DNA from: Actinomycetes bacterium
GTDB lineage: Bacteria > Actinomycetota > Actinomycetes > S36-B12
Assembly (NCBI GenBank): GCA_037130755.1
Contig: JBAXSI010000002.1
Location: 111,661 to 175,660 of the forward strand
Direction: 5' to 3'
DNA length: 64,000 nt
Each line of letters opens with the position of its first letter. Within the stretch, counting starts at the first letter, position 1. Shown in pieces: positions 1 through 55,574 of this stretch. Below the pieces are notes generated by a model that saw only the letters and a program-made list of their open reading frames with translations, made no database searches and was not told where the DNA came from. A program made the translations under genes and the position numbers.

Positions 1-1976
1 ACCGGCTGCTCACGGAGCACGCATCCGACGTCGTCGTGCAGGTCGCCCTCGACGGGACCCTCGAGTGGATCTCGCCTTCGGTGACGAGGCTCCTCGGCTA
101 CGAGCCAGCACAGCTCATCGGGACTCATCCATGGGACCTGGTCCACCCGGACGACCGGGCCGCGGCCGCCGCCAACCTCGCCGATGCTGCCACGCCGGGT
201 CATCAGCCGTCGCCCCTGGCGACGCGGTTCTGCAAGTCGGATGGCTCATATGTGTGGCTGTCCGCGGCGGCGCGGAAGACGCCCGAAGGCCTGTTCGTGG
301 TGAGCTTCCGCGAGGTCGACGAGGAGGTTCGTGCGCGGCAGGCGCTCCTCGACTCCGAGGTGCGTTATCGACTCCTGGCCGAGAACGCGATGGACCTCGT
401 GTTCTCCCTCGACATGCACGCGGTCATCACGTGGGTTTCCCCGTCCGCTGTCAGGATGCTCGGCTACGGTCCGGAGGATCTGATCGGGCAGTTCGGCGGC
501 ATGCTCATCGTCGAGGAGGATCTGCCGCTGCTGCTCAGTGCCGCGGCCGATGCGCGCACGGGTCTTCCGGTGTCCTGCCAGATTCGCATGCTCATGAAGT
601 CCGGCGACGAACGGTGGGTGGAGGCCACGCCGAGAGCGCTGCACGACGATGCGGGCGACCTCGTCGGTGGGGTGATCGGTGTGCGCGACGCCCACGAGGA
701 AGTGCTCGCCCGCACGGCCCTCGTCCACGCGTCCGACTACGACGCACTCACCGGGCTCGCCAACCCGGCGCTGGCGCTGGCCCGGATCCAGGGCGTCCTC
801 GACACGCACGAACCAGAGGCGTGGGCGTTGGTGTGCGTTGGGGTGGATGGGATGACCGCCATCAACCAGGCCTACACGTACGCCGCTGGGGACGCCGTCC
901 TCGCGGCCGTGGCCGCCAGGCTCGTGACCGCGGTCGAGGACGAGACCAGCGTCGCGAGGATTGCCGGCGACGAATTCGTCGTCCTGGTCGACGGAATCTC
1001 GGACGCCACCGATGCCGCGAGCGCAGCTGCCCAGCTGCTCAGCGTCGTGCGCGGGACGGTCGATTTCGGCGGAGTGCAGATCGATGTCTCGGCAAGCGCT
1101 GGCATCGCCCTCGCGCACGGCGGTGACGTTCAGGGCTTGCTTCGAGACTCGACCGCGGCGATGCGGCAGGCGTCGGCGAAGGGTCCCGATCACTGGGAAT
1201 TCCTCGACGGCGACGTGGCCGAGCAGGCACGGCGCGCTCTGTCGCTGCAGTCCTCCCTGCGCGAGGCGGTCCGGCAGGGTCGCATTGAGCCCTGGTTCAT
1301 GCCGATCGTCGGACTCACGGACGGCGCGGTCGTCGGCTACGAGGTCCTCGCGCGATGGATCAGAGGCGACGGCCGGATCGCATTGCCTGCGGAGTTCCTG
1401 GCGGTAGCGGAGCGCACGGGGCTCATTGTCGACATCGACCGCGCCATGCTCGAGCGCTCGGTGGCGCTACTGGGCGAGAACCAGGGCATCGAGCGACTCG
1501 CCGTGAACGTCTCGGCGGCGACTCTCGCCAACGGATCGCTGACGGCACTGGTCGTTGACGCGTTGCAGAAGTCGGACGTCGACCCGCGGCGGCTGCACCT
1601 GGAGGTCACCGAGACGTCACTGGTCAAGGTCACGAAGCAGGTCCGACGAACCATGGAGGAGATCGCCGGCCTGGGAGCCTCCTGGTGGGTCGATGACTTC
1701 GGCACCGGCTTCTCGTCGATCAGTCACCTGCGCGACTTGCCGATCAGCGGACTGAAGTTGGATCAGTCTTTCACTGCAGGCGTGACGCGGCCGGACACGG
1801 CGGCCGCGCGACTGGCCCTGGGCCTGGTGGGCCTTGCTTCGGGCCTTGGACTGAAGACCATCGCCGAAGGCATCGAGAACGCCGAGCAGGCGGAGGTGCT
1901 CACCGCGCAGGGCTGGCAGATGGGCCAGGGCTGGCTGTTCGGTCGCCCCATCGGGACGACCGCTAGCGCAGCGTGA
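1..1976 (+). CDS. PAS-PAS-GGDEF-EAL c-di-GMP turnover protein, 5' end cut by window edge
   Basis: Frame stays open to nt 1 (codons before the GTG at 36 read RLLTEHASDVVVQ). Two PAS cores (WISPSVTRLLGYEP, WVSPSAVRMLGYGP). GGDEF domain with variant AGDEF (RIAGDEFVVLV). EAL domain with EVL variant (YEVLARW), EVTETS, DDFGTGFSS. Confidence 0.9.
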   Translation, partial: RLLTEHASDVVVQVALDGTLEWISPSVTRLLGYEPAQLIGTHPWDLVHPDDRAAAAANLADAATPGHQPSPLATRFCKSDGSYVWLSAAARKTPEGLFVVSFREVDEEVRARQALLDSEVRYRLLAENAMDLVFSLDMHAVITWVSPSAVRMLGYGPEDLIGQFGGMLIVEEDLPLLLSAAADARTGLPVSCQIRMLMKSGDERWVEATPRALHDDAGDLVGGVIGVRDAHEEVLARTALVHASDYDALTGLANPALALARIQGVLDTHEPEAWALVCVGVDGMTAINQAYTYAAGDAVLAAVAARLVTAVEDETSVARIAGDEFVVLVDGISDATDAASAAAQLLSVVRGTVDFGGVQIDVSASAGIALAHGGDVQGLLRDSTAAMRQASAKGPDHWEFLDGDVAEQARRALSLQSSLREAVRQGRIEPWFMPIVGLTDGAVVGYEVLARWIRGDGRIALPAEFLAVAERTGLIVDIDRAMLERSVALLGENQGIERLAVNVSAATLANGSLTALVVDALQKSDVDPRRLHLEVTETSLVKVTKQVRRTMEEIAGLGASWWVDDFGTGFSSISHLRDLPISGLKLDQSFTAGVTRPDTAAARLALGLVGLASGLGLKTIAEGIENAEQAEVLTAQGWQMGQGWLFGRPIGTTASAA

Positions 1977-3048
1977 GGCGCACGATCCGATCGTCGCCCG
2001 CGCGGACCTGGCCGCGGCCGTCGGTGTTGCTGGTCATCAGCCACAGGGATCCGTCCGGCGCGGTCGACACGGTCCGGATCCTGCCCAAGTCGCCGAGATT
2101 CATGGCGACCGGCGTACCGGCAAGGCGACCGGAGAGCGGCACCCGGAAGAGTCGCTGTCCGGCCAGGGTCGCGACGTAGGCCGCGGACCCGGCAATAGCC
2201 ACCCCGCTGGGTGACGCCGTCGACGTGGGGGTCCACTGCGCGATCGGGTCGACGAAGCCGGCGGCTCCCGCGGCACCTTCGTGCATCGGCCACCCGTAGT
2301 TGCGGCCGGGGCGAAGGAGGTTGAGCTCGTCGACGGTCTTCTGGCCGAATTCGGTGGCGAACAGCCGGCCGGCCGGGTCGAACGCCAGGCCCTGAACGTT
2401 GCGATGGCCCAGGGTCCAGACCAATGACCGCGGGAACGGATTGTCCTTCGGCCGGCCGCCGCTGGGCGTCATCCGGAGCACCTTGCCGCCGAGGCTGCCA
2501 ACGTCCTGGCTGAGAGTGCCATTGGTCGTGTCGCCGGTGGAGGCGTAGAGCATGCCGTCGGGGCCGAACACCAGGCGGCCGCCGTTGTGGAACTGCGCGC
2601 GGGGGATCCCGGCCAGCACGAGTCGTGGCGCGCCGAGTCGTCGGCCGTCCCAGGGCATCCGCACGATGCGGTTGTCGGTCGCCGAGGTGAAGTAGGCATA
2701 CACCCACCGCGGCTTCGGGCCGGGTGGCACCGCGATGCCGAGCAGCCCGCCCTCGCCGTACGGTGTCGCACCCGGTACCTGGCCGACGGTGCGCACGACC
2801 GTCGCCGCCCCTGGCCGGATGCGCTTGATCAGGCCGGTGTCGCGCTCGCTGACCAGTGCAGTTCCGTCCGGCAGGAACGCGAGCCCCCACGGTGAGGTCA
2901 GCCCGGTGGCGATGGTCTCAGTGCCCCGAACGCGTTCAGGCGGGCGTGGCTGCGCATTCGAGATCGAGGTGGGCGCAATGACGACGAGGGCGAGCAGTAG
3001 TGCCGTGGCAGTGAGTCGTGCCCAAGTGCCCGCCGTGCATCGCCGCAC
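1963..3048 (-). CDS. Secreted PQQ-dependent sugar (glucose/sorbosone) dehydrogenase
   Basis: GLTSPWGLAFLPDGTALVSERDTGLIKRI plus HNGGRLVFGPDG and GHRNVQGLAFD blocks typical of the soluble beta-propeller sugar dehydrogenase family. I chose the GTG at 3048 because it gives a signal peptide (RRCTAGTWARLTATALLLALVVIAPTSISNA) and avoids overlapping the upstream CDS that ends at 3074. Confidence 0.8.
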   Translation of the reverse strand: MRRCTAGTWARLTATALLLALVVIAPTSISNAQPRPPERVRGTETIATGLTSPWGLAFLPDGTALVSERDTGLIKRIRPGAATVVRTVGQVPGATPYGEGGLLGIAVPPGPKPRWVYAYFTSATDNRIVRMPWDGRRLGAPRLVLAGIPRAQFHNGGRLVFGPDGMLYASTGDTTNGTLSQDVGSLGGKVLRMTPSGGRPKDNPFPRSLVWTLGHRNVQGLAFDPAGRLFATEFGQKTVDELNLLRPGRNYGWPMHEGAAGAAGFVDPIAQWTPTSTASPSGVAIAGSAAYVATLAGQRLFRVPLSGRLAGTPVAMNLGDLGRIRTVSTAPDGSLWLMTSNTDGRGQVRAGDDRIVRLTLR

Positions 3049-3073
3049 GCGAACGGGCGTGTTCGCGCGAGTC

Positions 3074-5482
3074 TTAGTCCGGAAGTGAGGCGGCAACAAC
3101 GACCTGGCCCCTTCCTCGCCGCTTCGCTTCGTACATGGCGGCGTCGGCCCTGCCCAGAAGTCGATCGACGGGCTCTGACGGCCCGGCGAGCGCAGCGCCG
3201 ACACTGAGCGTCGCGTCCACGTCCCCCACGGGCAGGTGAACCGGGCGGGCGGTTGCTGCAAGCACCTTCTCGGCGATCTGCGTCACGTCGTCGAGGCTGG
3301 CCACTCCGTCGAGGATGACGAGGAATTCATCGCCGCCGAGCCGGGCGATCATGTCGCCCTGCCGGACGGTCGTGCGGATCCGTGCGGCCGTCTTGCGAAG
3401 AACCTGGTCGCCGGCGGCGTGACCCCTGGTGTCATTGATCGCCTTCAGGTTGTCGACGTCGCAGAACAGGACAGCGAAGTCGTCGCCGGGTCGTTGCGAT
3501 TGGCGCCCCATGTCGGCGAGCCGGGTCAGGGCGGGATCCCGTTTGAGTACGCCGGTGAGGTCGTCGAAGGTGGCCCGACGCTCGAGGTCCTGCTCGATCC
3601 TGACCTCATGGTCGATTGTCCGGAACGACACGACATGCCAGCCATCGGCAGAGCCGGCTTCGATGGATGCCTTCGAGTGGGCCTCGATCCAGTGGTAGCT
3701 GCCCGTTGCGTTCCGCATTCGCCATCGGCGGACCCCGGGAACGGGGGAGGGCTCAGCATCGGTCTCCACCAGCGCGCCGATGTCGTCCGGGTGGGTGAAC
3801 TCGCGGATCGGCCGGTCCTGCCACTCCTCAGGTCGCCAGCCGAGCATCTCGTGCAGCGACGGCGACGCCCAGAGCACGACGCCGTCCTTGATGCGCAGGA
3901 CGACGTCCGAGGAGTGCTCGGCCAGGAGGCGGTACCGCTCCTCGGACTGCCGCAGCTCGGCCTCGGCCCGGTGCTGCTCGCTCACGTCGATGGCGATGGC
4001 GACGCCGCCGACAATCGTTCCGGAGCCATCGACGATCGGATTGACGCGAATCATGAAGTGTCGGCTGCCATCCAGGGACGGCATGTCCGTCGTCGATGAC
4101 TGACCTTGGAGGGCAGCCACGTAGAGGGGCTCGTAGACCGCCCATCGTTCCGGAGACAGCACGTCGGAAACGAGGCTGCCCTCCAGGTCCCCCGGGTCGA
4201 TGCCCGCGGAGGTGATGGCCTCTCCTCGAGCGACGCGATACCGGAGGTTGGTGTCGAAGACCATCAGCGAGGCGTCTGGAAGGCTCTCGAGGGCGTCGGT
4301 GAGGAGCTCCCACTGCTCGTGCTGGACCTGGATGTCCTTGGCGCCCCCTATCCATGCGTCGACTCGACCGTCGACGACTGCCGGCCTGGCGTTCACCTCG
4401 AACCAGCGGTAGGAGCCAGTGCTGAGCCGGATCCGCACCTCTACGGAGACCCGTCCTTCGTCGATCGGGTCTGACGTCGCCTCGATGAAGCCCCCGACGT
4501 CATCCGGATGGATGAAGTCTGAGATGGCCCGTCCGACGAGCTCCGTGCTGACCCACCCTGACGCATGCTCCACGGAAGGAGAGATCCATTCAATGACTCC
4601 GTGGGCGTCGCCGCGGAAGACGACATCGGACGCGTTCTCCGCGAGAAGGCGGAATCGCTCGTTCGAGTGGGCCAGTTCCAGGGCCTGGTCGTGTCTCTCG
4701 GTGACGTCGCGCCAGGTCTGGCTGACGGCGTCGCCGGCCTTCACGGCTCGCACGTCGTAGCGACGCACCCGTCCGTCATAGATGTCCTGCGGGTAGGACC
4801 AGTCGTCCAGCACCAACCTGAGGCCCCGGTCGACGACACCGACGTACATGTCGAACAACTCCGTACTCGTCGCGGCCGGGTGCAAGGACAGGAGGCGGCT
4901 CCCGAGGAGCTCATCGCGGGTCATCCCGTGGAAGTCGAGGGCGGCAACGTTCGCGTCGGCATACTCGAAGTCGAGGATGGCCCCCTGATCGTCGCGCACT
5001 GCTGCCAGGAGGACGAACGGGTCGAGCATCGCATCGAGCAGTGCTTGGAGGCGGATTCGCTCTTGGGCCTCGGACTCACGGGCTTCAACAAGATCCGTGA
5101 CGTCGCGGACGGCACCGTACAGCGCCACTGAGCCATCTGCTCGCTTCCGCTTCACGCATCGGTGGGCCGTCCAGATCAGTCGCCCGTCCCGGGCGATCCA
5201 GCGCAGCCTGAGGTCGATGACCTGATCGATCTGGGCTTGGGCCGCAGACTGGAGGGTCGGGACATCGCGAGGGTCAAGAAGTCGAAACCCGAGTTCGGGA
5301 TCGGCATAGTGCTCAGCCGGGCTATAGCCGACAAGCGCCTCCACCGACGGCGACACGAATTCGAAGGCGACGTCGGGCTCAAGGCGCAGGACGTAGACGG
5401 TGTCGGCCAGCGCAGTCGCCATCTCGGCGACGAAGGCGTCGTCCGCTGGGTCACGATGCGCGTCGGTCGGCACCGTCGTCAT
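3074..5482 (-). CDS. Multi-PAS diguanylate cyclase (GGDEF only)
   Basis: About five PAS modules (FEFVSPSVEALVGYSP, IEWISPSVEHASGW, VLWASPSLHEMLGWRP and others). C-terminal GGDEF domain with canonical ARLGGDEFLVIL and an RxxD I-site (RQGD) five residues upstream. No EAL domain. Confidence 0.9.
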   Translation of the reverse strand: MTTVPTDAHRDPADDAFVAEMATALADTVYVLRLEPDVAFEFVSPSVEALVGYSPAEHYADPELGFRLLDPRDVPTLQSAAQAQIDQVIDLRLRWIARDGRLIWTAHRCVKRKRADGSVALYGAVRDVTDLVEARESEAQERIRLQALLDAMLDPFVLLAAVRDDQGAILDFEYADANVAALDFHGMTRDELLGSRLLSLHPAATSTELFDMYVGVVDRGLRLVLDDWSYPQDIYDGRVRRYDVRAVKAGDAVSQTWRDVTERHDQALELAHSNERFRLLAENASDVVFRGDAHGVIEWISPSVEHASGWVSTELVGRAISDFIHPDDVGGFIEATSDPIDEGRVSVEVRIRLSTGSYRWFEVNARPAVVDGRVDAWIGGAKDIQVQHEQWELLTDALESLPDASLMVFDTNLRYRVARGEAITSAGIDPGDLEGSLVSDVLSPERWAVYEPLYVAALQGQSSTTDMPSLDGSRHFMIRVNPIVDGSGTIVGGVAIAIDVSEQHRAEAELRQSEERYRLLAEHSSDVVLRIKDGVVLWASPSLHEMLGWRPEEWQDRPIREFTHPDDIGALVETDAEPSPVPGVRRWRMRNATGSYHWIEAHSKASIEAGSADGWHVVSFRTIDHEVRIEQDLERRATFDDLTGVLKRDPALTRLADMGRQSQRPGDDFAVLFCDVDNLKAINDTRGHAAGDQVLRKTAARIRTTVRQGDMIARLGGDEFLVILDGVASLDDVTQIAEKVLAATARPVHLPVGDVDATLSVGAALAGPSEPVDRLLGRADAAMYEAKRRGRGQVVVAASLPD

Positions 5483-5581
5483 GCCGGGCCTCCGATCGGT
5501 AGTCGAAGTGTCACCTTGGGGTCTGCACTTCGCGTCCAGAATGACACGATCGGACCGGTTTGGGCGGTCGATGCGCTCCGT

Positions 5582-8500
5582 TCACGCGTGCGGATAGGGA
5601 CGGTCCAGCTGCCAGGTGAGTTCCTCGGGTGGAAGGGCCTTGGAGTAGAGCCAGCCCTGCGCGGTCGGACAGCCCATCGCGATGAGCTTGGCTGCCTGCT
5701 CGGGATGCTCCACCCCCTCGGCCGTGACGGTGATGCCCAGAACCGTGGCGAGGGCGATGATTCCCGCGACGAGGTCGCGGTCGTAGTCGGGCTTGGCGGT
5801 GAGAGCGATGAAGCTTCGGTCGATCTTGATGACGTCTATGGGGTACTGACTCAGGTAGGTCAGTGACGCGTAGCCGGTCCCGAAGTCATCGATGGCGATG
5901 CCGATGCCGCGGTCGTGGATGCCGTCGACGTTGTCACGGGCAGTGGTGGTCTGGTTCAGCAGCGCGGTCTCGGTGATCTCGATGCACAGCAGTCGGGGAT
6001 CCAGTCCGCTTGCGGCCAGCGCGTCGTCGATCGTGTCGAGGAGCCCCGCGTCGGCGAGTTGGAGGGCGGACGCGTTGACCCGAACGGTGATCGGCCGGTC
6101 GGGACGGGTCGCGGCCCAGGTGGCGCCCTGGTTGCAGGCTTCCCGCAGGACCCAGTCGCCGATGTCCAGGATCAGGCCGGTCTCCTCGGCGACCTCGACG
6201 AAACGATCGGCATTCCAGATTCCTCCGTCAGGGTGATGCCAGCGAAGGAGTGCCTCGACGGCGGTCACCGCCCCGGTGGCGAGGGTCACCTCTGGCTGGT
6301 ACCAGACGGCGAACTGGTCACGTTCGAGGCCGTGCCGGAGGTCGGCTTCCACCGCCAGGCGGGTGGTGACTGCCGTGCGAAGGTCCTCGTTGAACACTGA
6401 CACCCGGTCGCGGCCGGCGCCCTTGGCCGCGTACATCGCGGTGTCGGCCTCGCGCAGCAGGTCGCCGGCGTCACTCACGTCGGTGGCGATCGCCACCCCG
6501 ACGCTCGTGGTCGCGTACAGATCCGCCCCGCCGAGGGTGAACGGGGTCCGGAACGCTGCGACGAGCCGCTCGCCCGCCCGGACCGCCTCGGCCGGGTCGT
6601 CAAGGTCACGCATCACGACCACGAACTCGTCGCCGCCGAGGCGGGCCGTCAGATCACCGGTCCTGACCACCTGCTCGATGCGGGCCGCGGCGTCGACCAG
6701 CAGGTCATCACCTGCAGCGTGGCCAAGGGTGTCGTTGACGTCCTTGAACCGGTCCAGGTCCAGCATCAGGACCGCGGTCTCGCGGCCGGACCGGCGTCCG
6801 GCACTGACCGCCCTGTTGATCTCGTCCAGCAGCGCGGCCCGGTTCGCCAACCCGGTCAGCCCGTCATGGGTCGCGAGCACCTGCAGCGCGTCGCTGGCGG
6901 TCTTGCGCTCGGTGATGTCAAGCGCCACCCCCTGAAGCCCGACAATCCTGCCGTCCGAATCGCGCACCGCCTCCCCACGCGCCAGCATCCAGCCGTGGGA
7001 GCCGTCTGGTCGGACCATCTCCAGTTCCAGTTCGTAGGGGACACCCTTCTCCTGGGTGACCGCCAGGTCCCGGCTCAGTGTTTGCCAGCTCCCGGCGGTG
7101 AACAACTGGCTGTGCTTGCTGAAGTCCGGCACCGGGCCTGTCGGGTCCAGCCCTTGCATGAGGAACAGCTCCTCCGACCAGGTGACCTCGCTCGTCGCGA
7201 TGTCCAGCGTCCAGCTGCCAACGTGGGCGATGCGCTGCGCCTGTTCCAGCTGCGCTCGGCTTGCTTCCAGGGCGGCCTCTGCCAGCTTCCGGTCGGTGAT
7301 GTCTCGGCTCGTCTGGACCACGTGACGGACCGACCCGTCCGCGGCCGCCTCCGCCGCGGCATTCGTCTCGTACCACCGGTGGCCCCTTGCGTTGACGATC
7401 TCGAACTCGAAGGTGACCGGTTCCCCGGTGGCGAACACCGTTCGGCGGTGCTCGTCCCAGGGCTCAGTCAGCTCGGGTGGGTAGCCGAGCTCCGCGAAGG
7501 TCCTGCCGATCCAGCGTTCGAGCGGGATTCCGGTGCTCTGCTCGACCGTGGCGTTCACGTACTCGAAGCGACCGTCGCGGTCGAGGCGGATGACGGCGTC
7601 GGTGGATGTGTCCAGCACCGTGCGCAGGAGTTCCTCATTCTCGGCGAGGGTCTGCTCGGCGAGTTTGCGCTCGGTGATGTCCAGGGTGACCCCGTGCAAC
7701 TCGATGATCGCGCCGTTCGCGTCCCGGATCGCCTCGCCGCGTGCCCACGTCCATCCCTGACTTCCGTCGGTCCTGACCGTCTGGAGTTCCAACTCGTACG
7801 GGGTTCCGCTTGTCTGGGCCAGCAGGACAGCCTCGGCCAGGCGCTGCCAGCTCTCGGGTGCGAACAGTCCTTCCTGGTCAGGGAAGCTCGGCACCGGCGC
7901 TGTCGGGTCCAGGCCGAACATCTCGTACAGCTCCGGCGACCAGACGACGACTCCGGTGGCCACGGCAAACTGCCAACTGCCCAGGTGGGCGATGCGCTCG
8001 GCCTCCAGCAGCGCTTCACGAAGGCTGTGCTCCTTGGTGACGTCGAGGATCTGTGCGATCCGGTGGCTGACGATCCCGTTCGCGTCGAGCACGACCGACA
8101 CGGTCACATCACCCCAGATCACCCGGCCGTCGCCGGTCACGTACCGCTTTGTCAGTCGCAGGCTCTGCCGGCGACCGTCCACCAGTTCCCTCACCAGATC
8201 GGCACCCACCGAAGCGTCGTCCGGGTGGGTGACGTCGAGGAAGCCCAGGTTCAGCAGCTCGTCCTCGCTGCGCGCCAGCAACTCGCAGATCGCCGGATTC
8301 ACTCGGATGAGCCTGCCGTCGTTGGCGACCAGGCATGTCGCCACTCTCGAGCGGTCGAAGGCGAGCCGGGACTGCTCCTCGCTGGCGGCGAGCGCCTGTT
8401 CGGCACGGTTGCGGTCGGTGATGTCTCGGGCGGCCGCGAACACCCCGGCGACTTCGCCGTGCTCGTCGCGGTAGACCGTGGCGTTGTAGAGCACGTCGGT

Positions 8501-9241
8501 GCTGGTGCCGTCGACGTTGCGGAGTGCCAGGGGGTAGTCGGTGACCGAGCCGGCGCTGAATGCCCTTTGGTAGCCGGTGCGGGCCGCGCCGGGGTCGGTG
8601 AAGTAGGAGGTGAAGTCGCTGCCGATCAGGTTCGGACGCTGGATGCCGGTGGCCCTCACGGTGGCTGCGTTGACGTCAGTGATGACGCCGTCGGCACTGA
8701 TGACCACGAGCGGGTCAAGACTCGCCTCGATCAGGCTCCGAGAGTACGCGGACACTCTGGCCAGCTCTTCCTCCGCGCGCACTCTCTCCTCGATGTCGAC
8801 AATGATCGAGAACAGCAGCGGCCGCCCGTCCCGGATGGGGGTCGAGTGGACGTCGACCCGACGGATCTCGCCGCTGGCGAGGCGGTGCGAAGCCATGAAG
8901 ATGCCGGACCCAGCATCGTGGGAGCGCACGCGGGCCAGCAGGGCGGTCATTTCGTCGGCGGGCAGCACGTTGATCTGACCGATGGACATCGAGAGCAGGT
9001 CTTCTGCCGAGTAGCCGTAGAACGCGACGGCCGAGGCGTTTGCATCGACGATCTGCCCCGTATCGGGGTCCAGGAGCAGCATGACGGCGTCATGCTCATG
9101 GAACATCGCCGCGAACCGGTGCGCTAGCGGTTCGGTGCCCGTTTCGCGCAGCCTGTCGCTGGATGGGGGTTCTGAGGCGGGCGGCTGACGGCGCTGGTGG
9201 GTTGCCATGTCTGCCCCCCTATCGGCATTTTGTATCGACAA
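5582..9241 (-). CDS. PAS-array GGDEF-EAL protein (1219 aa), paralogue of 15778-19068
   Basis: Many PAS/PAC modules. GGDEF with RTGD I-site and ARLGGDEFVVVM. EAL domain with VEALLRW, EITETAL, DDFGTGYAS. The start could instead be the internal ATG (MATHQRR) at about 9208. Confidence 0.9.
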   Translation of the reverse strand: MSIQNADRGADMATHQRRQPPASEPPSSDRLRETGTEPLAHRFAAMFHEHDAVMLLLDPDTGQIVDANASAVAFYGYSAEDLLSMSIGQINVLPADEMTALLARVRSHDAGSGIFMASHRLASGEIRRVDVHSTPIRDGRPLLFSIIVDIEERVRAEEELARVSAYSRSLIEASLDPLVVISADGVITDVNAATVRATGIQRPNLIGSDFTSYFTDPGAARTGYQRAFSAGSVTDYPLALRNVDGTSTDVLYNATVYRDEHGEVAGVFAAARDITDRNRAEQALAASEEQSRLAFDRSRVATCLVANDGRLIRVNPAICELLARSEDELLNLGFLDVTHPDDASVGADLVRELVDGRRQSLRLTKRYVTGDGRVIWGDVTVSVVLDANGIVSHRIAQILDVTKEHSLREALLEAERIAHLGSWQFAVATGVVVWSPELYEMFGLDPTAPVPSFPDQEGLFAPESWQRLAEAVLLAQTSGTPYELELQTVRTDGSQGWTWARGEAIRDANGAIIELHGVTLDITERKLAEQTLAENEELLRTVLDTSTDAVIRLDRDGRFEYVNATVEQSTGIPLERWIGRTFAELGYPPELTEPWDEHRRTVFATGEPVTFEFEIVNARGHRWYETNAAAEAAADGSVRHVVQTSRDITDRKLAEAALEASRAQLEQAQRIAHVGSWTLDIATSEVTWSEELFLMQGLDPTGPVPDFSKHSQLFTAGSWQTLSRDLAVTQEKGVPYELELEMVRPDGSHGWMLARGEAVRDSDGRIVGLQGVALDITERKTASDALQVLATHDGLTGLANRAALLDEINRAVSAGRRSGRETAVLMLDLDRFKDVNDTLGHAAGDDLLVDAAARIEQVVRTGDLTARLGGDEFVVVMRDLDDPAEAVRAGERLVAAFRTPFTLGGADLYATTSVGVAIATDVSDAGDLLREADTAMYAAKGAGRDRVSVFNEDLRTAVTTRLAVEADLRHGLERDQFAVWYQPEVTLATGAVTAVEALLRWHHPDGGIWNADRFVEVAEETGLILDIGDWVLREACNQGATWAATRPDRPITVRVNASALQLADAGLLDTIDDALAASGLDPRLLCIEITETALLNQTTTARDNVDGIHDRGIGIAIDDFGTGYASLTYLSQYPIDVIKIDRSFIALTAKPDYDRDLVAGIIALATVLGITVTAEGVEHPEQAAKLIAMGCPTAQGWLYSKALPPEELTWQLDRPYPHA

Positions 9242-13640: not shown

Positions 13641-15625
13641 GTCTGCTCCGATGGGTTGAGGGTGAAGCGGAACGTGGCCCCTTCATCGACGGCGGCCTCG
13701 GCCCAGATGCGGCCACCGTGGCGCTCGACGATGCGTCGGGCGCTCGCCAGGCCAATGCCGTTGCCGGGGAACTCGCTGGAGGAGTGCAACCGCTGGAACG
13801 GCTGGAACAGCTTGTCAGAGTAGGCCGGGTCGAAGCCCGCGCCGTTGTCGCGCACCACAAGGCAGAAGGGGGCGTCCGTCACGGTCTCGGTGCCTACCTC
13901 GATGCAGGCGTCGGGTCGCTTCGAGGTGTACTTCCAAGCATTGTCGAGCAGGTTCTCCAGCACCGTGTGCAGCAGCGGCCCGTCCCCCCGGGCCTTCATG
14001 CCGGGCTCGATGACCACCTGGACTCGGCGGTCAGGGTCGCGGTCGGCCAGGCCCTCGAGGATCGTGGCGCACTCGGCGCTGACGTCTACCCCTTCGACGT
14101 GCAGCACGGCGCGCGACACCCGCGACAGCTGGAGCAGGTCGTCGATCAGCCCCGCCATCTGTCGACTGGCCGCCTCGATCCGGTGGGCATAGCCCCGGCC
14201 GGTCTCGTCGAGGGTGTCGGAGTACTCCTCCAGCAGCGCCTCACTGAACCCGCTCATCGCTCGTAGCGGCGATCGCAGGTCGTGCGACACCGAATAGGTG
14301 AACGCCTCTAGCTCGGCGTTCGCGCGCCGGATCTCGTCTGTGCGCTGCTCCACACGTTGCTCCAGGACCGCGTTCAACTGCCTGACCTCGGCTTCCGCCG
14401 CCATCCGGTGTCTGGATTCCCGGGCGACTACCTCTTCCGCGCTCTTGCGTTCGGTGACGTCGCGGCTCGACTCGATCACGTGGGCGACGGACCCGTCCGG
14501 GCCGAACTCCGGGGCGACGCTCGTCTCATACCAGCGGTGCCCCTCCGCGTTGTCGATCTCGAACTCGAACGTGACCGGCTCGCCGGTGGTGAACACCGTT
14601 CGGCGATGGACGTCCCACGACTGAGCGAGTTCGGCCGGGTAACCCATCTCCTCGAACGTCTTCCCGATCCACCGCTCGGCCGGAATGCCGGAGATCTCCA
14701 CGACCCGATGGTTGACGAACTCCACCAGGCCGTCGGCGCCGATTCGGATCGTGGTGTCAGGCGAGGTATCGAGCACGGCCCGCAACAACTCCTCGCCGGC
14801 GACCAGTGCCTGCTGCGCTGCTTTGCGCTCGGTGATGTCGCGTGCGGCGGCGAAGACTCCGGCGACGTCGCCGTCGGGGTCGCGGTAGACGGAGGCGTTG
14901 TAGAGCACGTCGGTGACGGAGCCGTCGACGTTCCGGATCGCCAGCGGGTAGTCGGTGACTGAGCCAGCGGCGAATGCCTCGCGGTAGCCGGCACGGGCCT
15001 GGTCGGGGTCGGTGAAGTAGCCGGCGAAGTCACTGCCGATCAGGGCCTGCCTTGGGACGCCAGTGGCCGTCACGGTGGCCGCGTTGACGTCGGTGATGAC
15101 GCCGCCAGGACTGATCGTGACCAGCGGGTCAAGGCTCGCCTCGAGCAGGGACCGCGCATACCCGGACACCCGGACGAGCTCCTCCTCGACCCGCACTCGG
15201 TCCTCGATGTCGACGATCAGGGCCCGGTTCGCGTTCTCCCGGTCCGTGACATCGATGAAGGTCACGGTGACCTGCTCCAGCTGCCCGCTATCGTCGACGC
15301 TGGGAAGTGCATTGACCTCCAGCCAGACATCGGGTCCCGCGGACGGCCGGACGATCATGGTCAGCCCGTGAACCGGCTCCATTGACGAGATCACCTGCAT
15401 CACGGGGAACCGCTCCAGAGCCATCGGGGAGTGGTCGGCCTCCAGGAACACCCAGCTGGGATCGGTCGCGAGTCGGCCTTCAAGATCCTGGAGTCCGAGG
15501 AGGGCCCGTGCGCGGTCGTTGGCCTCGATGATCGCGGTGTCGGCAGCGTGGACCACCACTCCGGCGCTCAGGGCGGCCAGAAGTGCTTCGTATCGGCTCG
15601 TCACGAGATCCCACCTCCCGACCAC
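13637..15625 (-). CDS. Multi-PAS sensor histidine kinase
   Basis: Three to four PAS modules, then HisKA H-box FTYSVSHDLRSPLRAM and an HATPase_c region (NLLDNAWKYT, VRDNGAGFD, GNGIGLA). Confidence 0.9.
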   Translation of the reverse strand: MVGRWDLVTSRYEALLAALSAGVVVHAADTAIIEANDRARALLGLQDLEGRLATDPSWVFLEADHSPMALERFPVMQVISSMEPVHGLTMIVRPSAGPDVWLEVNALPSVDDSGQLEQVTVTFIDVTDRENANRALIVDIEDRVRVEEELVRVSGYARSLLEASLDPLVTISPGGVITDVNAATVTATGVPRQALIGSDFAGYFTDPDQARAGYREAFAAGSVTDYPLAIRNVDGSVTDVLYNASVYRDPDGDVAGVFAAARDITERKAAQQALVAGEELLRAVLDTSPDTTIRIGADGLVEFVNHRVVEISGIPAERWIGKTFEEMGYPAELAQSWDVHRRTVFTTGEPVTFEFEIDNAEGHRWYETSVAPEFGPDGSVAHVIESSRDVTERKSAEEVVARESRHRMAAEAEVRQLNAVLEQRVEQRTDEIRRANAELEAFTYSVSHDLRSPLRAMSGFSEALLEEYSDTLDETGRGYAHRIEAASRQMAGLIDDLLQLSRVSRAVLHVEGVDVSAECATILEGLADRDPDRRVQVVIEPGMKARGDGPLLHTVLENLLDNAWKYTSKRPDACIEVGTETVTDAPFCLVVRDNGAGFDPAYSDKLFQPFQRLHSSSEFPGNGIGLASARRIVERHGGRIWAEAAVDEGATFRFTLNPSEQT
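14474..14567. repeat. PAS-cassette nucleotide repeat, copy C (inside histidine kinase gene)
   Basis: 94-nt block gatcacgtgggcgacggacccgtccgggccgaactccgggg...gtcgatctcgaactcg. By hand alignment it differs from copy B (17899-17992) at about 6 positions. Confidence 0.8.
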
Positions 15626-15777
15626 TCGGGGGATTCGTCACTCCATACTTGACAGCCCTGCGCTTTCGAGGCTACACCCCGCTGCCCCCCGACGCGGCGT
15701 CGTGCGATCGGTGACCACCGTGGACGGTTGCGACCATCGGGCGACGGCGGGCACGCCTTTGCACACCGCCGGCCCAT

Positions 15778-18700
15778 TCAGTGGCACGGGTACGTGTGGT
15801 CCAGGAGTGGGGTGATCTGGTCGGGGGGGAGGGCGAGGGAGTAGAGGTAGCCCTGCGCCGATGGGCACCCCATGTCGCGGAGGTGGGTGGCCTGCTCGGG
15901 GTGTTCGACGCCTTCGGCGGTGACGGTGATGTCGAGGATGGTGGCCAGGGCGATGATGCCGGCGACGAGGCGGTGGTCGTGGTCGGGGAGGGTGGTGTCG
16001 GTGATGAAGCTGCGGTCGATCTTGATCACGTCGATGGGGTACTGGTGAAGGTAGGTCAGGGAGGCGTAGCCGGTGCCGAAGTCGTCGAGGGCGATGCCGA
16101 TGCCGCGGGCGTGGAGGCCGGCGAGGTTGTTGCGCGCGGTGGCGGTCTGGCGCAGCAGCGCGGTCTCGGTGATCTCGATGCACAGCAGCGCGGGGTCCAG
16201 GCCGCTGGCCGCCAGGGCGTCGTCGATCGCGGGCAGCAGTCCGGTCTCGGCGAGTTGGAGGGCGGAGGTGTTGACGCGGACGGTGATGGGCCGGTCGGGG
16301 CGGGCGGTGGCCCAGGCGGCGCCCTGGGCGCTGGCCTGGTTCAGGGCCCAGTCGCCGATGACCAGGATCAGCCCGGTGTCCTCGGCGACGTCGATGAACC
16401 GGTCGGCGGTCCACACCGTCCCGTCGGGGTGGTGCCAGCGCAGCAGCGCCTCCACGGCGATCACCGCCCCGGTGGCCAGGTCGATCTCGGGCTGGTACCA
16501 CACGGCGAGCTGGTCGCGTTCGAGGGCGTGCCGCAGGTCGGTCTCGACAACGCGACGGGTGGCGGCGCTGATGCGCAGGTCCTCGTTGAACACGGCCACC
16601 CGGTCGCGGCCCGCGTCCTTGGCGGCATACATCGCGGTATCGGCCTCCCGCAGGAGGTCTCCGGGGTCGGGTGCTGCAGCGACGTCACCGGCGATGGCCA
16701 CCCCGATGCTCGCCGTGGAGTACAGCTCCGCCCCGGCAAGGGTGAAAGGAGCCCGGAACGCGTCCACCAGCCGCCCGGCTGCCCGCACGGCCTCGGTCGG
16801 GTCGTCCAGGTCGCGCATCACGATCACGAACTCGTCCCCGCCGAGGCGGGCCACGAGGTCCCCGGCACGCACGACGTGCTCGATCCGAGCTGCGGCGGCG
16901 ACCAGCAGGTCATCACCGGCGGTGTGCCCCAGGGTGTCGTTGACGTTCTTGAACCGGTCCAGGTCCATCATCAGGACTGCCGCCGGCCGGCCCGACCGCT
17001 GTCTCGCGCTCACCGCCCTGGTGATCTCGTCCAGCAGTGCCGCCCGGTTCGCCAGCCCGGTCAGCGGGTCTCGGGTGGCCAGCGCCTGCAGCACGTCGCT
17101 GGCGTTCTTGCGTTCGGTGATGTCGAGCGCCACCCCCTGAACTCCGGTGATTCCTCCCGCGGGGTTGCGTACCGCCTCGCCGCGAGCGAGCATCCACCCG
17201 TGGGTGCCGTCGGGTCGGACCATCTCCAGTTCCAGCTCGTAGGGGGAACCAGTTGTCTGGGTCTGGGAGATGGCGGTATTCATGCGAAGCAGGCTCTCCG
17301 GGGTGAAGAAGCGATCGGACTCGGCGTAGTCCGGGACTGGGCTCTCCGGGTCCAGGCCCCGCATCAGGTACATCTCCTGCGACAGCGTGACCTGATTCGT
17401 GGCCAGGTCCAAGGTCCAACTGCCGACATGGGCGATCCGCTGCGCCTGCTCCAACTGCGACTGGCTCGCCCGCAGCGCCTCCTCCGCCGCCTTGCGCTCC
17501 GTGATGTCACGACTCGTCAGGATCACGTGGGCGACCGCCCCGTCCGGGCCGAACTCCGGGGCGACGCTCGTCTCGTACCACCGGTGACCCTCGGCGTTGT
17601 CGATCTCGAACTCGTAGGCGACAGGCTCGCCGGTCTCGAACGCACGTCGGTCGTGGGCCTCCCAACTCGTCGCGAGGTCGGCCGGGTAGCCCATCTCGAT
17701 GAATGTCCTTCCGATCCAGTCGTCGAACTGGATTCCGGACACGGCGATTACCCGACCGTTCACGTACTCGATCCGACCCTCGCTACCGACCCGTATAGTC
17801 AGGTCATTCGACGTGTCGAGCACCACCCGCAACAACTCCTCGCTTGCGACCAGTGCCTGCTGCGCTTCCTTACGGTCGGTGATGTCGCGGCTCGTCTCGA
17901 TCACATGGGCGACCGCCCCGTCCGGGCCGAACTCCGGGGCGACGCTCGTCTCATACCAGCGGTGACCGTCGGCGTTGTCGATCTCGAACTCGAACGTGAC
18001 CGGTTCCCCGGTGGCGAACACGCGCTGGCGCTGGGCGTCCCAGCTCTGAGCCAGCTGGACCGGGTAGCCCATCTCCTCGAACGTCTTCCCGATCCACTGT
18101 TCGAAAGGGATGCCGGAGATCTCCACGACCCGTTTGTTCACGTACTTAATCCGGCCGTCGAGGCCGATCCGTATCGTGGTGTCCCGCGACGTGTCGAGCA
18201 CCGTCCTCAATGACTCCTGAGCGGCGGCCAGCGCTTTCCGGGCGAGTACCTCGTCCTGTATGTCTCGTTGAGTTGCGATCCTGCCGATCGTTCCGCGCTC
18301 GTCGACGACAGCGGCGCTGACCACGCCGCCCATCCACCGGTACTCACCACTGGCCATGCGCGACCGCAGCTCGAAGCGCACCCCGGTCTCCCCGCCAGTT
18401 GTGCGGGTCCGCACTTGAGGTACGACCGCGAGATCGTCCGGATGGACGAGATCCGTGCCCTTGGTGCCCACCAGGTCATCCGGTTCGTATCCCAAGACCA
18501 GTCGGACACTCGGTGACACCCACAGGAAGACACCGTCGGGGTTGATCAGGCTGACCATGTCGGTGCTGTTCTCCGCCAGCAGCCGGTAGCGGCGCTCGCT
18601 GTTCTCAAGTGCCTCCTCCGCAAGCACTCGGTCCTCGATGTCGGTGATGATCGAGAACAGCAGGGGCGTACCGTCGCGAATGGGGGAGGAGTGCACGTCC

Positions 18701-19068
18701 ACCCTGCGGATCTCGCCGCTGGCCAAGCGATGCGGCGCTACGAAATGGCCGTGCGCACGGGATGCTGCTTTCGCCAACAGGCCAGCCACCTCGTCGGCAG
18801 GCATCACGTTGATGTCGGTGATCGACATCGAGCGCATGTCGTCCACGCTGTATCCGTAGAACGAGGCCGCCGACGGATTTGCGTCAACGATTTCCTCTGT
18901 TTCGGGGTCGATGAGCAGCATCACCGCATCGTGGTCGTGGAACACCGCGTCGAAGCGGTGCACGCCGGCGAGAACCTCGACGTCCGAGGCTTGGCTCGTG
19001 CCAAGGTGAGCGGCGGGTCCGTTTTCGTCTCCCGGGCCACCGCGTTGACCGTGGTCTTGGCCGGCCAT
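15778..19068 (-). CDS. PAS-array GGDEF-EAL protein (1096 aa), paralogue of 5582-9241
   Basis: N-terminal PAS nearly the same as in 5582-9241 (FHDHDAVMLLIDPETEEIVDAN, HRLASGEIRRVDVHSSPIRDG). Tandem duplicated PAS modules. GGDEF with RAGD I-site and ARLGGDEFVIVM. EAL with VEALLRW, EITETAL, DDFGTGYAS. Confidence 0.9.
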   Translation of the reverse strand: MAGQDHGQRGGPGDENGPAAHLGTSQASDVEVLAGVHRFDAVFHDHDAVMLLIDPETEEIVDANPSAASFYGYSVDDMRSMSITDINVMPADEVAGLLAKAASRAHGHFVAPHRLASGEIRRVDVHSSPIRDGTPLLFSIITDIEDRVLAEEALENSERRYRLLAENSTDMVSLINPDGVFLWVSPSVRLVLGYEPDDLVGTKGTDLVHPDDLAVVPQVRTRTTGGETGVRFELRSRMASGEYRWMGGVVSAAVVDERGTIGRIATQRDIQDEVLARKALAAAQESLRTVLDTSRDTTIRIGLDGRIKYVNKRVVEISGIPFEQWIGKTFEEMGYPVQLAQSWDAQRQRVFATGEPVTFEFEIDNADGHRWYETSVAPEFGPDGAVAHVIETSRDITDRKEAQQALVASEELLRVVLDTSNDLTIRVGSEGRIEYVNGRVIAVSGIQFDDWIGRTFIEMGYPADLATSWEAHDRRAFETGEPVAYEFEIDNAEGHRWYETSVAPEFGPDGAVAHVILTSRDITERKAAEEALRASQSQLEQAQRIAHVGSWTLDLATNQVTLSQEMYLMRGLDPESPVPDYAESDRFFTPESLLRMNTAISQTQTTGSPYELELEMVRPDGTHGWMLARGEAVRNPAGGITGVQGVALDITERKNASDVLQALATRDPLTGLANRAALLDEITRAVSARQRSGRPAAVLMMDLDRFKNVNDTLGHTAGDDLLVAAAARIEHVVRAGDLVARLGGDEFVIVMRDLDDPTEAVRAAGRLVDAFRAPFTLAGAELYSTASIGVAIAGDVAAAPDPGDLLREADTAMYAAKDAGRDRVAVFNEDLRISAATRRVVETDLRHALERDQLAVWYQPEIDLATGAVIAVEALLRWHHPDGTVWTADRFIDVAEDTGLILVIGDWALNQASAQGAAWATARPDRPITVRVNTSALQLAETGLLPAIDDALAASGLDPALLCIEITETALLRQTATARNNLAGLHARGIGIALDDFGTGYASLTYLHQYPIDVIKIDRSFITDTTLPDHDHRLVAGIIALATILDITVTAEGVEHPEQATHLRDMGCPSAQGYLYSLALPPDQITPLLDHTYPCH
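17521..17614. repeat. PAS-cassette nucleotide repeat, copy A
   Basis: 94-nt block with about 4 mismatches to copy B. It lies exactly 378 nt (126 codons, one PAS module) from copy B within the same gene. Confidence 0.85.
17899..17992. repeat. PAS-cassette nucleotide repeat, copy B
   Basis: See copies A and C. Encodes EFEIDNA(D/E)GHRWYETSVAPEFGPDGAVAHVI on the minus strand. Confidence 0.85.
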
Positions 19069-19322: not shown

Positions 19323-19399
19323 TGGGGTGAGTGACGGGACTTGAACCCGCGACCACCTGGACCACAACCAGGTGCTCTACCAGCTGAGCTACACCCACC
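19323..19399 (-). tRNA. tRNA-His (anticodon GTG), CCA and G-1 genomically encoded
   Basis: The reverse complement reads g-gtgggtg-ta-gctcagctggtagagc-a-cctgg-ttGTGgt-ccagg-tggtc-gcgggttcaagtcccgt-cactcac-c-cca. It folds as a cloverleaf with a 7-bp acceptor stem and the extra 5' G typical of tRNA-His. Confidence 0.93.
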
Positions 19400-19524
19400 A
19401 TGAGCATCGCGGTGCCGGGGGCGCCGTCCTGTCATCCCGCCGCGAAGCGGGAAGGTGATTCTATCGAAGCCAGGTCCGGTGTCTCATCGGACCCGACCTT
19501 CGAGCCAGATCGGTACGCGGCTGC

Positions 19525-20172
19525 CTACGAGTGGCCGGTCTCCTCGTCGTCCGGGCCGGCGGCTGTGCCGTGCGTGACGACGTGGTTCTCGCCGATCGCC
19601 TTGGCCGTCTCGGAGTCCGGTCCGGGGTGCGGGACGAACGCCGCGTCGCGGTAGTAGCGCAGTTCTGCGATGGACTCACGGATGTCGCCTAGAGCCCGGT
19701 GGTTGCCGGTCTTCTCTGGCGTCGCGAAGTACACGCGCGGGAACCAGCGCCGCACCATCTCCTTGAAGCTGGACACGTCGACCAGGCGATAGTGCATGTG
19801 CTGGTCGAGGGCAGGCATGTACCGCGACAGGAAGCCGCGGTCGACGTAGACGCTTGAGCCGGCCAGCGGCGCCTTGCGCGCCTCGGGAATGTGCCGCTGC
19901 ACGTACTCCAGGACCAAGGCCTCCGCATCGGCGAGTGGGATGCCGTGGGGGATCTCGGTGATGAGGCCCGACTCGGTGTGCATGTTCACCACGAACGGGT
20001 CCATGGCGGCGAGGGGTGCCTCACTCGGCTTCACGACGAGGCTGATCCCGGAGTCGATCTCGGTGAGGTCCGCCTCCGTGACGATGCAGGCGATCTCGAC
20101 GATCTCGTCGAAGGACGGGTTGAGGCCGGTCATCTCGAGGTCGATCCACACCAATCGGTCACCAGTAGCCAT
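19525..20172 (-). CDS. orn: Oligoribonuclease
   Basis: DRLVWIDLEMTGLNPSFDEIVEIACIVTEADL (DEDDh exonuclease ExoI motif) and HRALGDIRESIAELRYY (ExoIII His motif). Size of about 215 aa fits. Confidence 0.9.
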   Translation of the reverse strand: MATGDRLVWIDLEMTGLNPSFDEIVEIACIVTEADLTEIDSGISLVVKPSEAPLAAMDPFVVNMHTESGLITEIPHGIPLADAEALVLEYVQRHIPEARKAPLAGSSVYVDRGFLSRYMPALDQHMHYRLVDVSSFKEMVRRWFPRVYFATPEKTGNHRALGDIRESIAELRYYRDAAFVPHPGPDSETAKAIGENHVVTHGTAAGPDDEETGHS

Positions 20173-20216
20173 GACGACAGCCTAGGAGTCGGGTCGGACG
20201 AGTCTTCGGCGGGCGG

Positions 20217-21535: not shown

Positions 21536-21711
21536 GGGGACAGCATGGCCTCCCCGGTCGGTGCAAGGGATGGGGAGACAGACCCCGAGGGCAGGGACCT
21601 AAGTCCCCATCTTGTTCAGGTTTGACGGTCTGCGGTGTCGGGTCTTTTGGATTCCCTGCCCCTACAATTCGCCCAACGGGTGGACATGTCGAAGATCGTG
21701 GAGAGGTCAAC

Positions 21712-22590
21712 GTGACGAGCACAGGCCGTGGCTCTGCGCCCGCGTTCTTGATCGCGGTGCTGGCGCTGGCGGGCATCGCTGCCCTGGGCGACCTTGGCGA
21801 TTCGCCCACCGTTGCGGTGGCACTGCTGGCCACCGTGCCGCTCTTCGCTGCCATCTTCCTGGGTCCGCTTGGCACGATGGCCGCGGCAATCCTGAGCGTG
21901 GTCGCCGCGCTCGCCATCACGTGGCTGCGATCCGACGGGGACTACTCGACATACCTCGTTCCGTTGATCGCCGTCGGCGTCGCCTCGCTCGTGGCGTTGC
22001 TGTCAGCAACGGTTCGCCATCGCCAGAGTGCGGCGGAGTCGGCGGCGCAAGGGGAGGCCTCGACTGCCGACGAGGTCTCCGAGGACATCGACGCCATGTC
22101 CGGCCTGCTGAACCGTCGGGGTGCCGTCCGCGCGCTGGGTTCTCACAACGTGGGTGAGGAGCGCGTCATCGCCTTCATCGACTGCGACCTGTTCGGACGC
22201 GTCAACGACGAGTACGGCCGAGACGTCGGTGACGAGTTCCTGCAGGCCATCGCCGGCCGCCTTCGCCACGCACTGCCGTCGCGCGACAGCGTCTCCCGAT
22301 GGGGAGGCGATGAGTTCCTGGTGGTCGTGTCCGCCGACGCGGACTCGGCCGTGGCTGCTCTGCACCGAGTCACCGGCACCATCAACGGCCATCCCATTCG
22401 CACGTCCGCCGGACCGATCGAGGCGACAATGTCGGCGGGCGCAGCATCCTGGCTGGTCGGGCAGGAACTCGAGGACGTCATCGCGCGTGCCGGACGCGCC
22501 CTCCGTGCGGCCAAGGAGTCCGGTCCCGGGCAGATCGTCCTCGACACCGGCCCCAGCATCGAGCGACTCGACACACCGGTGACCACTTAG
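21712..22590 (+). CDS. Membrane-anchored diguanylate cyclase (about 4 TM plus GGDEF)
   Basis: GTG at 21712 preceded by ggagagg. Hydrophobic N-terminus (FLIAVLALAGIAALG, LATVPLFAAIFLGPLG and others). SGLLNRRG, then SRWGGDEFLVVV. No RxxD I-site. The tracked ORF starts earlier at 21622. Confidence 0.85.
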   Translation: MTSTGRGSAPAFLIAVLALAGIAALGDLGDSPTVAVALLATVPLFAAIFLGPLGTMAAAILSVVAALAITWLRSDGDYSTYLVPLIAVGVASLVALLSATVRHRQSAAESAAQGEASTADEVSEDIDAMSGLLNRRGAVRALGSHNVGEERVIAFIDCDLFGRVNDEYGRDVGDEFLQAIAGRLRHALPSRDSVSRWGGDEFLVVVSADADSAVAALHRVTGTINGHPIRTSAGPIEATMSAGAASWLVGQELEDVIARAGRALRAAKESGPGQIVLDTGPSIERLDTPVTT

Positions 22591-47026: not shown

Positions 47027-47028
47027 GA

Positions 47029-47286: not shown

Positions 47287-47290
47287 CTTC

Positions 47291-55573: not shown

Positions 55574-55574
55574 C

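Follow-up and report, generated by a model that had tools for sequence, protein, structure and literature searches.

The stretch of DNA analysed here (the window) comprises 64,000 nucleotides of the Actinomycetes bacterium assembly GCA_037130755.1 (contig JBAXSI010000002.1, forward-strand positions 111,661 to 175,660), and its first ~23 kb carry a dense cluster of genes for GGDEF and EAL proteins, the enzymes that make and degrade cyclic di-GMP (c-di-GMP), which is a second messenger. We conclude that an uncultured freshwater actinobacterium of Actinomycetales type probably carries, in this cluster, a chromosomal sensory island specific to its lineage, one that fills the interval between a tRNA-His gene and the backbone gene u336 and has grown by duplication and shuffling of PAS sensor modules together with accretion of further c-di-GMP genes. 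With g01 as its left-most and g09 as its right-most gene, the island extends over ~19.6 kb from ~200–400 nt left of window position 1 up to position 19322, and the 3′ end of tRNA-His forms its right boundary. It contains the GGDEF and/or EAL genes g01, g03, g04, g06 and g09, the PAS kinase gene g08, the receiver gene g07, g05 and a gene for a glucose/sorbosone dehydrogenase (GSDH); coordinates are collected in Table 1.

Eight open reading frames in the window encode GGDEF and/or EAL domains above the Pfam gathering score, six of them within ~23 kb. GGDEF (PF00990) scored 80–155 bits in all eight proteins (cut-off 23.8) and EAL (PF00563) 109–238 bits in g01, g04, g06, g09 and g55 (cut-off 31.3), and a six-frame scan with hidden Markov models (HMMs) built from the window's own GGDEF and EAL domains returned the same eight frames and no others. 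Using an HMM of our own, built from clear PAS modules, we counted 20–21 PAS modules including the three of the kinase (Table 1). The initial annotation of this stretch, made from the sequence alone, had listed the same eight genes, their motif states and, by eye, about twenty PAS modules, with a sugar dehydrogenase, a secreted protein and a two-component pair as the only other genes up to 19.1 kb; all of this was borne out, the interleaved genes being GSDH, the signal-peptide protein g05, the kinase g08 and the receiver g07. Five different samples yielded assemblies that agree with the region at 99.9% nucleotide identity, so the gene arrangement is not a mis-assembly of repeated domains, and the altered motifs AGDEF (g01) and GADEF (g06) recur in every independent contig that covers them. 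Contig L093, from another sample, reaches 6.9 kb left of the window; we used it to complete g01 and found no additional GGDEF/EAL gene in those 6.9 kb. The window comes from a metagenome contig, and judging by its genes (DUF4333, WS/DGAT, DUF222-HNH and a complete haem pathway with hemQ) it resembles part of an actinobacterial chromosome. We rejected a plasmid origin, as a megablast search of positions 1–23000 against PLSDB returned only four short, domain-level matches of 50–98 bases.

The boundaries of the island emerge from gene order in relatives, which we located using g05 and, as a second anchor yielding L098 and L099, the Usp gene. The distance from tRNA-His to u336 is ~19.6 kb here and ~1 kb in L099. 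Gene order in L099 runs g13-Usp-CBS-Orn-tRNA-His, one Rce1-like gene, a u336 homologue (67% identical) and, farther along, a homologue of u384 (71%), and the backbone is therefore collinear with the window; between tRNA-His and u336, L099 has neither g05 nor any GGDEF/EAL gene. L097 has an Rce1-like gene beside g05 that is 81% identical to that of L099. In L088, g05 is followed directly by homologues of u336, u384, u218, u228, u219, ThiS and PALP (72–93% identical), and the 9.6-kb block g04-g03-GSDH-g01 that separates g05 from u336 in the window genome is absent. Around the g05 homologues of L085, L086 and L087, the 10 kb to either side are free of GGDEF/EAL genes, as are the 10 kb on the one flank covered in L095. 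A scan of metagenome contigs with g05 gave a single locus, one that the set already included. A g04-type gene lies beside or near g05 in L091 and L097, and L096 has a PAS-EAL gene 3 kb from its g05 homologue. In L098, tRNA-His is followed by unrelated genes and by a g01-like gene that is broken up into several frames. The initial annotation had allowed that relatives without conserved adjacency would speak against its view of the cluster as a hub, and this is largely what the relatives display: a single gene in the L099 interval, no g04-g03-GSDH-g01 block in L088, and no GGDEF/EAL gene in the flanks covered at four g05 loci.

The g01-like gene of L098 (15561–17660) encodes a PAS-GGDEF-EAL protein 36–51% identical to g01, ~7 kb downstream of tRNA-His, and occupies at least three reading frames; it is either a pseudogene or the product of indel errors in assembly.

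The sixth GGDEF gene of the cluster, g13, belongs with the genes to the right of this boundary. Between g09 and g13 lie the tRNA-His and orn genes, which the initial annotation did not mention, and the TM-GGDEF gene (the g13 orthologue, 49–51% identical), Usp, CBS, Orn and tRNA-His are kept in both L098 and L099, where Orn is ~80% and Usp 72–76% identical. By this gene order, g13 is a conserved core gene outside the island. Since the core block is kept in relatives that lack the island, the adjacency of orn is no sign of a dedicated role in it; a cyclase adjoining a pGpG-degrading enzyme may be a clade-wide association. The block occupies 19323–22590 in the window, 5666–8946 in L098 and 8877–12140 in L099, with the TM-GGDEF gene divergent from Usp-CBS-orn. 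In L099, an operon for an Flp/Tad pilus (1715–8630), absent from the window, is found between a thioesterase gene and the g13 orthologue. It encodes Flp, TadE, RcpC, a CpaE-like ATPase, a TadA-like ATPase and two T2SSF proteins, one with a VWA domain, and the pilus is a plausible c-di-GMP target in that relative.

Sequence relationships among the island proteins point to two routes of growth. In an all-against-all comparison, g04 and g09 were 59% identical over 970 amino acids (aa) and formed the sole pair of close paralogues; g13 and g50 are distant paralogues (41%), and every other pair, including those involving g01, g03 and g06, was 27–37% identical, the generic level of the family. The three PAS modules of the kinase (P1–P3) all have close matches on GGDEF-EAL proteins: P1 matches the first module of the L097 g04 orthologue at 78%, P2 is 76% identical to the second module of g04, and P3 is 81%, 70% and 64% identical to g09.P3, g09.P4 and g04.P5, respectively. 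Within g09, P3 and P4 are 73% identical, an internal duplication, and between the two paralogues g04.P1 matches g09.P1 at 70% and g04.P6 matches g09.P5 at 62%. One sensor repertoire has thus been connected to two kinds of output, a kinase and GGDEF-EAL enzymes. Nucleotide identity of the PAS repeats is 74–84%, so none of them is very recent, and the g04 orthologue of L097 shows 70% identity with g04 and 60% with g09, which places the g04/g09 duplication before the split from L097. No LOV-type flavin motif was present in the PAS modules, and matches of the g09 PAS array to the PDB were too weak to name a ligand.

The remaining members have other histories. The GGDEF-EAL module of g06 is 52–59% identical to proteins of other Actinomycetales-type metagenome-assembled genomes (MAGs) and 33–37% identical to its own neighbours. 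Scanning genome contigs for g06 homologues gave 80 loci, of which the best (52–59%) matched in the GGDEF-EAL part alone and had no neighbouring genes in common, so that these loci served for comparison and not for synteny; the MAGs of the nearest homologues are labelled Actinomycetales, Dermatophilaceae, Kineosporiaceae or, more broadly, Actinomycetota. Because g01, g03 and g06 stand at family-level identity and g06 is closer to proteins of other MAGs, these genes were brought together rather than amplified in situ. Of the local amplification proposed in the initial annotation, the part that concerns g04, g09 and the sensor of the kinase is real, and the part that concerns g01, g03 and g06 is not supported.

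We read motif states from an alignment of the eight GGDEF and five EAL domains. The GG[DE]EF motif is intact in g03, g04, g09, g13, g50 and g55 and altered in g01 and g06; the GGDEF domain of g01 also has a degenerate metal/GTP box, and its N-D box no longer has the Asp. The RxxD I-site, five residues upstream of the active site, is present in five of the proteins (Table 1) and missing in g01, g13 and g50. EAL domains were scored for E(A/V)LxR, N, ExxE, the DD within the DDFGTGYSS loop, KxD, EGxE and QG, positions reportedly identified as catalytic in studies of RocR and TBD1265. This set is complete in g01 (with EVL), g04, g06 and g09, and the catalytic residues of g55 are kept as far as the DDFGTG loop, where the window stops. 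A hydropathy scan found an N-terminal membrane segment in g01 and several in g13, g50 and g55 (Table 1) and none in g03, g04, g06, g09 and the kinase g08, which we read as soluble. Both receivers (g06 and g07) keep the acceptor Asp, the Thr/Ser and the Lys. From these motifs we predict a phosphodiesterase anchored in the membrane, its cyclase domain dead, for g01, a product-inhibited diguanylate cyclase for g03, a phosphorylation-controlled phosphodiesterase for g06 and a cyclase for g13, in agreement with the division of labour that the initial annotation had suggested. Among 11 homologues of g06 in other MAGs, 10 have GGDEF, and the pattern was not found in the 11th; GADEF is therefore a change specific to this lineage. 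The region of g06 between receiver and GADEF gave profile hints for PAS only below threshold. In contig L004, from a different sample, this stretch after the receiver is shortened by a 57-nt in-frame deletion (window 12594–12650, L004 8548–8561) between GACGCCGGCGGCG repeats, at a cost of 19 residues (VVDLVCVDANPEAVVLAGG); this reflects either variation in the population or an error of assembly.

How the genes are transcribed bears on whether the cluster acts as one module. The kinase gene g08 overlaps the receiver gene g07 by 4 nt, as does g07 with g06, and kinase, receiver and g06 therefore very probably form one operon. The GSDH gene starts 25 nt past the stop codon of g03, a gap from which co-transcription of these two is probable, and g03 starts 99 nt past g04. 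The remaining intergenic gaps are ~150–220 bp, hairpins with weak z-scores follow the stop codons of g09, g06 and g05, and the lone promoter-like site was upstream of tRNA-His. A single co-regulated unit is not indicated. On these spacings, g09 and g05 would each be transcribed alone, beside a kinase-receiver-g06 unit and, probably, a g04-g03-GSDH unit. Thus the co-regulation considered in the initial annotation is supported for kinase, receiver and g06 only, with other gaps of 99–218 bp, some of them bearing hairpins past the stop codon.

The predicted activities and units suggest how the island could work. Duplication and PAS-module shuffling inside one PAS-GGDEF-EAL family would have produced g04 and g09, members of a family whose module types also make up the sensor array of the kinase, and accretion would have added the unrelated genes g01, g03 and g06. 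The soluble PAS kinase g08 would phosphorylate both g07 and the receiver of g06. As its EAL domain is intact and its cyclase site (GADEF) dead, g06 should be a phosphorylation-gated phosphodiesterase. As g04 and g09 share PAS module types with the kinase, they should answer the same cytoplasmic cues, and they would act on c-di-GMP directly. The messenger itself would be made by g03 and g13, g01 would degrade it at the membrane, and the neighbouring Orn would clear pGpG.

A tighter arrangement, in which six enzymes, the two-component system and Orn operate as one integrated, co-regulated c-di-GMP hub with divided labour, is in our judgement unlikely. Eight consecutive protein-coding genes that share a strand and lie no more than 218 bp apart, complementary motif states, homologous PAS modules on the kinase and two of the enzymes, and the adjoining orn gene would all fit such a hub. 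However, its arrangement is conserved in none of the relatives examined, most of its members are unrelated paralogues, hairpins lie past several stop codons, and the place of orn is accounted for by the conserved orn-tRNA-His core block. Family scans of the window proteins found no c-di-GMP effector protein, and a search of the window with Rfam found tRNA as the sole RNA and no c-di-GMP riboswitch.

Shared PAS types also lend themselves to a more speculative proposal, which we regard as improbable, that g08, g04 and g09 are one multi-output sensor. Here PAS types that are 73–81% identical would feed a kinase core and GGDEF-EAL enzymes in parallel, and a single cytoplasmic cue would reach c-di-GMP by a built-in feed-forward circuit with a direct arm (g04 and g09) and a phosphorelay arm (kinase to g06); the three proteins might also assemble into mixed oligomers by way of these homologous modules. 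If this were true, the PAS swapping between kinase and GGDEF-EAL outputs observed among relatives would be a general route of sensor rewiring for the clade.

We also asked how far the density of the cluster exceeds chance. We compared 42 loci from diverse bacteria, each with a GGDEF-EAL gene and 10 kb of complete sequence to either side of it: one GGDEF/EAL gene was present at 36, two at five and three at one, against six in the equivalent span here. Ten homologous neighbourhoods of relatives, 160 kb in total, held seven intact GGDEF/EAL genes with one broken and one cut, and at most two per locus. None of the 52 comparison loci thus had more than three such genes, and the clustering noted in the initial annotation is beyond anything among them. 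The remaining ~48 kb of the window and left extension hold two. These figures suggest a background of about one GGDEF/EAL gene per 20–25 kb around the anchors, from small samples and with anchors picked for proximity to GGDEF genes. When genes were placed at random in a genome of 4–5 Mb, the probability of at least six in any 23-kb span was ~0.001 for a genome total of 60, 0.01–0.02 for 100, 0.08–0.19 for 150 and 0.3–0.6 for 200. Position alone, which hinges on the genome-wide gene count, is therefore suggestive of non-random clustering and not decisive.

Chance clustering in an exceptionally GGDEF/EAL-rich genome, with no significance beyond the two-component operon, seems improbable to us on the combined evidence. 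It would be consistent with the two genes in the rest of the window and left extension, with the seven to nine genes in the relatives' neighbourhoods and, were there 150–200 genes in 4–5 Mb, with a simulated probability of 0.08–0.59. Against it, g04, g09 and the kinase have recent ancestry in common and lie within 13.5 kb, the comparison loci with no more than three genes include those of GGDEF-rich relatives, and with 100 genes or fewer the probability is at most ~0.02.

Several observations weigh against the reading of the locus as a lineage-specific island grown by duplication and accretion. The short interval between tRNA-His and u336 was found in one relative only, L099, and the relatives are fairly distant (g05 58–68%, Usp 72–76% identical); whether genes were gained here or lost there therefore rests on parsimony. 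The g04-type neighbours of g05 in L091 and L097 imply that part of the cluster predates this lineage. The route by which the interval was filled is not marked either: Pfam identified no integrase or other mobility gene in 1–19.3 kb, a search for att-like copies of the 3′ end of tRNA-His, allowing up to three mismatches, found none in the window or L093, and the G+C content (GC) of the island (0.65–0.70) equals that of its flanks, with no shift in a window of ~67% GC throughout. In DNA of 67% GC, promoter and terminator scans and intergenic folding were uninformative. A horizontally acquired integrative island inserted at tRNA-His, which would abut the tRNA 3′ end as observed and differ in content from relative to relative as the intervals of L098, L099 and the window do, is nevertheless very unlikely, given these same absences of mobility genes, direct repeats and a GC difference, the nearest homologues in Actinomycetales, Dermatophilaceae, Kineosporiaceae and Actinomycetota MAGs, and the place of g05, a gene of this interval, in the clade's own backbone.

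Each protein of the island is an ordinary member of a well-known family, and the island is neither a new kind of system nor a conserved one. Dense c-di-GMP gene clusters have already been described; this one is heterogeneous and includes a two-component operon. Leptospira interrogans carries seven in-tandem PAS and GGDEF paralogues (LIC_11125-11131), the number of which varies among serovars (PMC12943098). As in that array, c-di-GMP genes run together at one locus, at least partly by local duplication, and their content varies between relatives. However, the Leptospira genes are paralogues of one architecture and cyclases only, whereas here a pure cyclase, GGDEF-EAL proteins, phosphodiesterases with degenerate cyclase sites and a two-component system are mixed, and only g04 and g09 are closest mutual paralogues of one architecture, as a tandem-duplication array would require of its members.

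RavS/RavR of Xanthomonas campestris, in which a PAS kinase controls the EAL output of a receiver-GGDEF-EAL regulator by phosphotransfer (PMC6707612), offers what would be the closest functional analogue of g08/g06. In both, the gene of a PAS-containing kinase adjoins that of a receiver-GGDEF-EAL regulator, a likeness drawn here from the genes, with a kinase that has its H and ATP-binding boxes and a regulator that has its acceptor Asp. Unlike RavS/RavR, the pair described here has a second, stand-alone receiver between kinase and regulator, has ~280 residues between receiver and GADEF in g06 and comes from another phylum. Among solved structures, those nearest to the GGDEF-EAL module of g06 are MorA, MucR and DosP (PDB 4RNH, 5M3C and 9CMF; E = 1e-83 to 1e-56, over both domains). 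Their PAS-GGDEF-EAL layout is shared by g04 and g09, with both active sites intact; the sensors here differ in being arrays of five or six PAS modules or a receiver, and g06 differs in having GADEF for GGDEF.

A passage of the paper cited for Leptospira describes CC3396 (PdeA) of Caulobacter crescentus, whose degenerate GGDEF domain binds GTP and activates the neighbouring EAL domain (PMC12943098). In g01 and g06, too, the cyclase site is degenerate and the EAL catalytic set complete; their motifs are AGDEF and GADEF, and g01 is also without the Asp of the N-D box. Orn is the enzyme that degrades pGpG (PMC6256023), the product of EAL enzymes, and has been described in mycobacteria (PMC9676404). 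The Orn encoded here passes the cut-off of the oligoribonuclease equivalog NF003765 (244.1 bits against 106, covering 184 of 189 model positions), but its place is a core feature common to relatives that have no island.

The locus illustrates how a c-di-GMP network can grow, with a variable interval beside a tRNA gene filled by duplication, by PAS exchange between kinase and GGDEF-EAL proteins, and by accretion. Characterised actinobacterial c-di-GMP networks, mainly those of Streptomyces and mycobacteria, are small. Should the shared PAS modules sense one cue, the island would be a compact natural system in Actinobacteria for studying how a signal divides into a phosphorelay branch and the direct turnover of a second messenger.

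Table 1. Genes of the c-di-GMP cluster and other GGDEF/EAL genes of the window (TM, transmembrane; PQQ, pyrroloquinoline quinone).
Feature	Position	Strand	Description
g01	1..1976	+	TM-PAS-PAS-AGDEF-EAL (EVL), 730 aa, start 216 nt left of the window; TM segment at residues 39-57; Pfam and motifs
GSDH	1963..3048	-	Secreted PQQ-type glucose/sorbosone dehydrogenase, 361 aa as called; PF07995, 228 bits; signal-like hydrophobic segment
g03	3074..5482	-	4 (possibly 5, one weak) PAS + GGDEF; RQGD I-site; no EAL
g04	5582..9241	-	6 PAS + GGDEF (RTGD I-site) + intact EAL; called start 9208, 1208 aa
g05	9422..10456	-	Secreted 344-aa protein with clear signal peptide; clade-restricted; synteny anchor
g06	10675..13215	-	Receiver, ~280-aa stretch with weak PAS hints, GADEF (RPGD I-site), intact EAL
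g07	13212..13640	-	Stand-alone receiver; PF00072; acceptor Asp, Thr and Lys kept
g08	13637..15625	-	Histidine kinase, 3 PAS + HisKA + HATPase; called start 15604; H, N, G1 and G2 boxes
g09	15778..19068	-	5 PAS + GGDEF (RAGD I-site) + intact EAL
tRNA-His (GTG)	19323..19398	-	ARAGORN and Rfam; 3′ end toward island
Orn	19525..20172	-	Oligoribonuclease; NCBIfam NF003765 equivalog
CBS-pair protein	20217-20633	-	Pfam; upstream neighbour of orn
Tandem-Usp protein	20630-21535	-	Pfam; 4-nt overlap with CBS gene
g13	21622/21712-22590	+	3 TM segments + GGDEF; no I-site
g50	57746/57827-58705	+	3 TM segments + GGDEF; no I-site; outside cluster
g55	61946/62009-64000	+	8 TM segments + GGDEF (RGID I-site) + EAL, cut by window end; outside cluster

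The secreted protein g05 has 22 homologues in the database, from metagenomes and genome records, most of them 58–69% identical. It has no match in Pfam or NCBIfam, and its AlphaFold model (mean predicted local distance difference test score of 62, a low confidence) retrieved nothing from the PDB with Foldseek at E ≤ 0.001.

A tRNA-Lys (CTT) gene stands at the same place of the conserved backbone, between u218 and u228, in the window genome (L093 18965–19039) and in the relative L088 (14398–14470). Other PAS kinase and receiver pairs, ~25% identical to g08, occupy different backbone positions in L088 (16280–18349 and 15906–16283) and L099 (14928–17413), and signalling genes seem to move repeatedly in and out of this region.

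Further along the window, positions 41886–44339 encode an 817-aa protein assigned to a family only by a short HerA/DUF87-type P-loop (residues 23–80). It is followed by a haem gene cluster of the coproporphyrin-type set (44451–56876), with genes for a hemY-like oxidase, ferrochelatase and a chlorite-dismutase-like HemQ together with hemE, hemA, hemC, hemD, hemB and hemL, which is broken up by a radical SAM gene (45473–47026) and a DUF222-HNH endonuclease gene (47291–48553).

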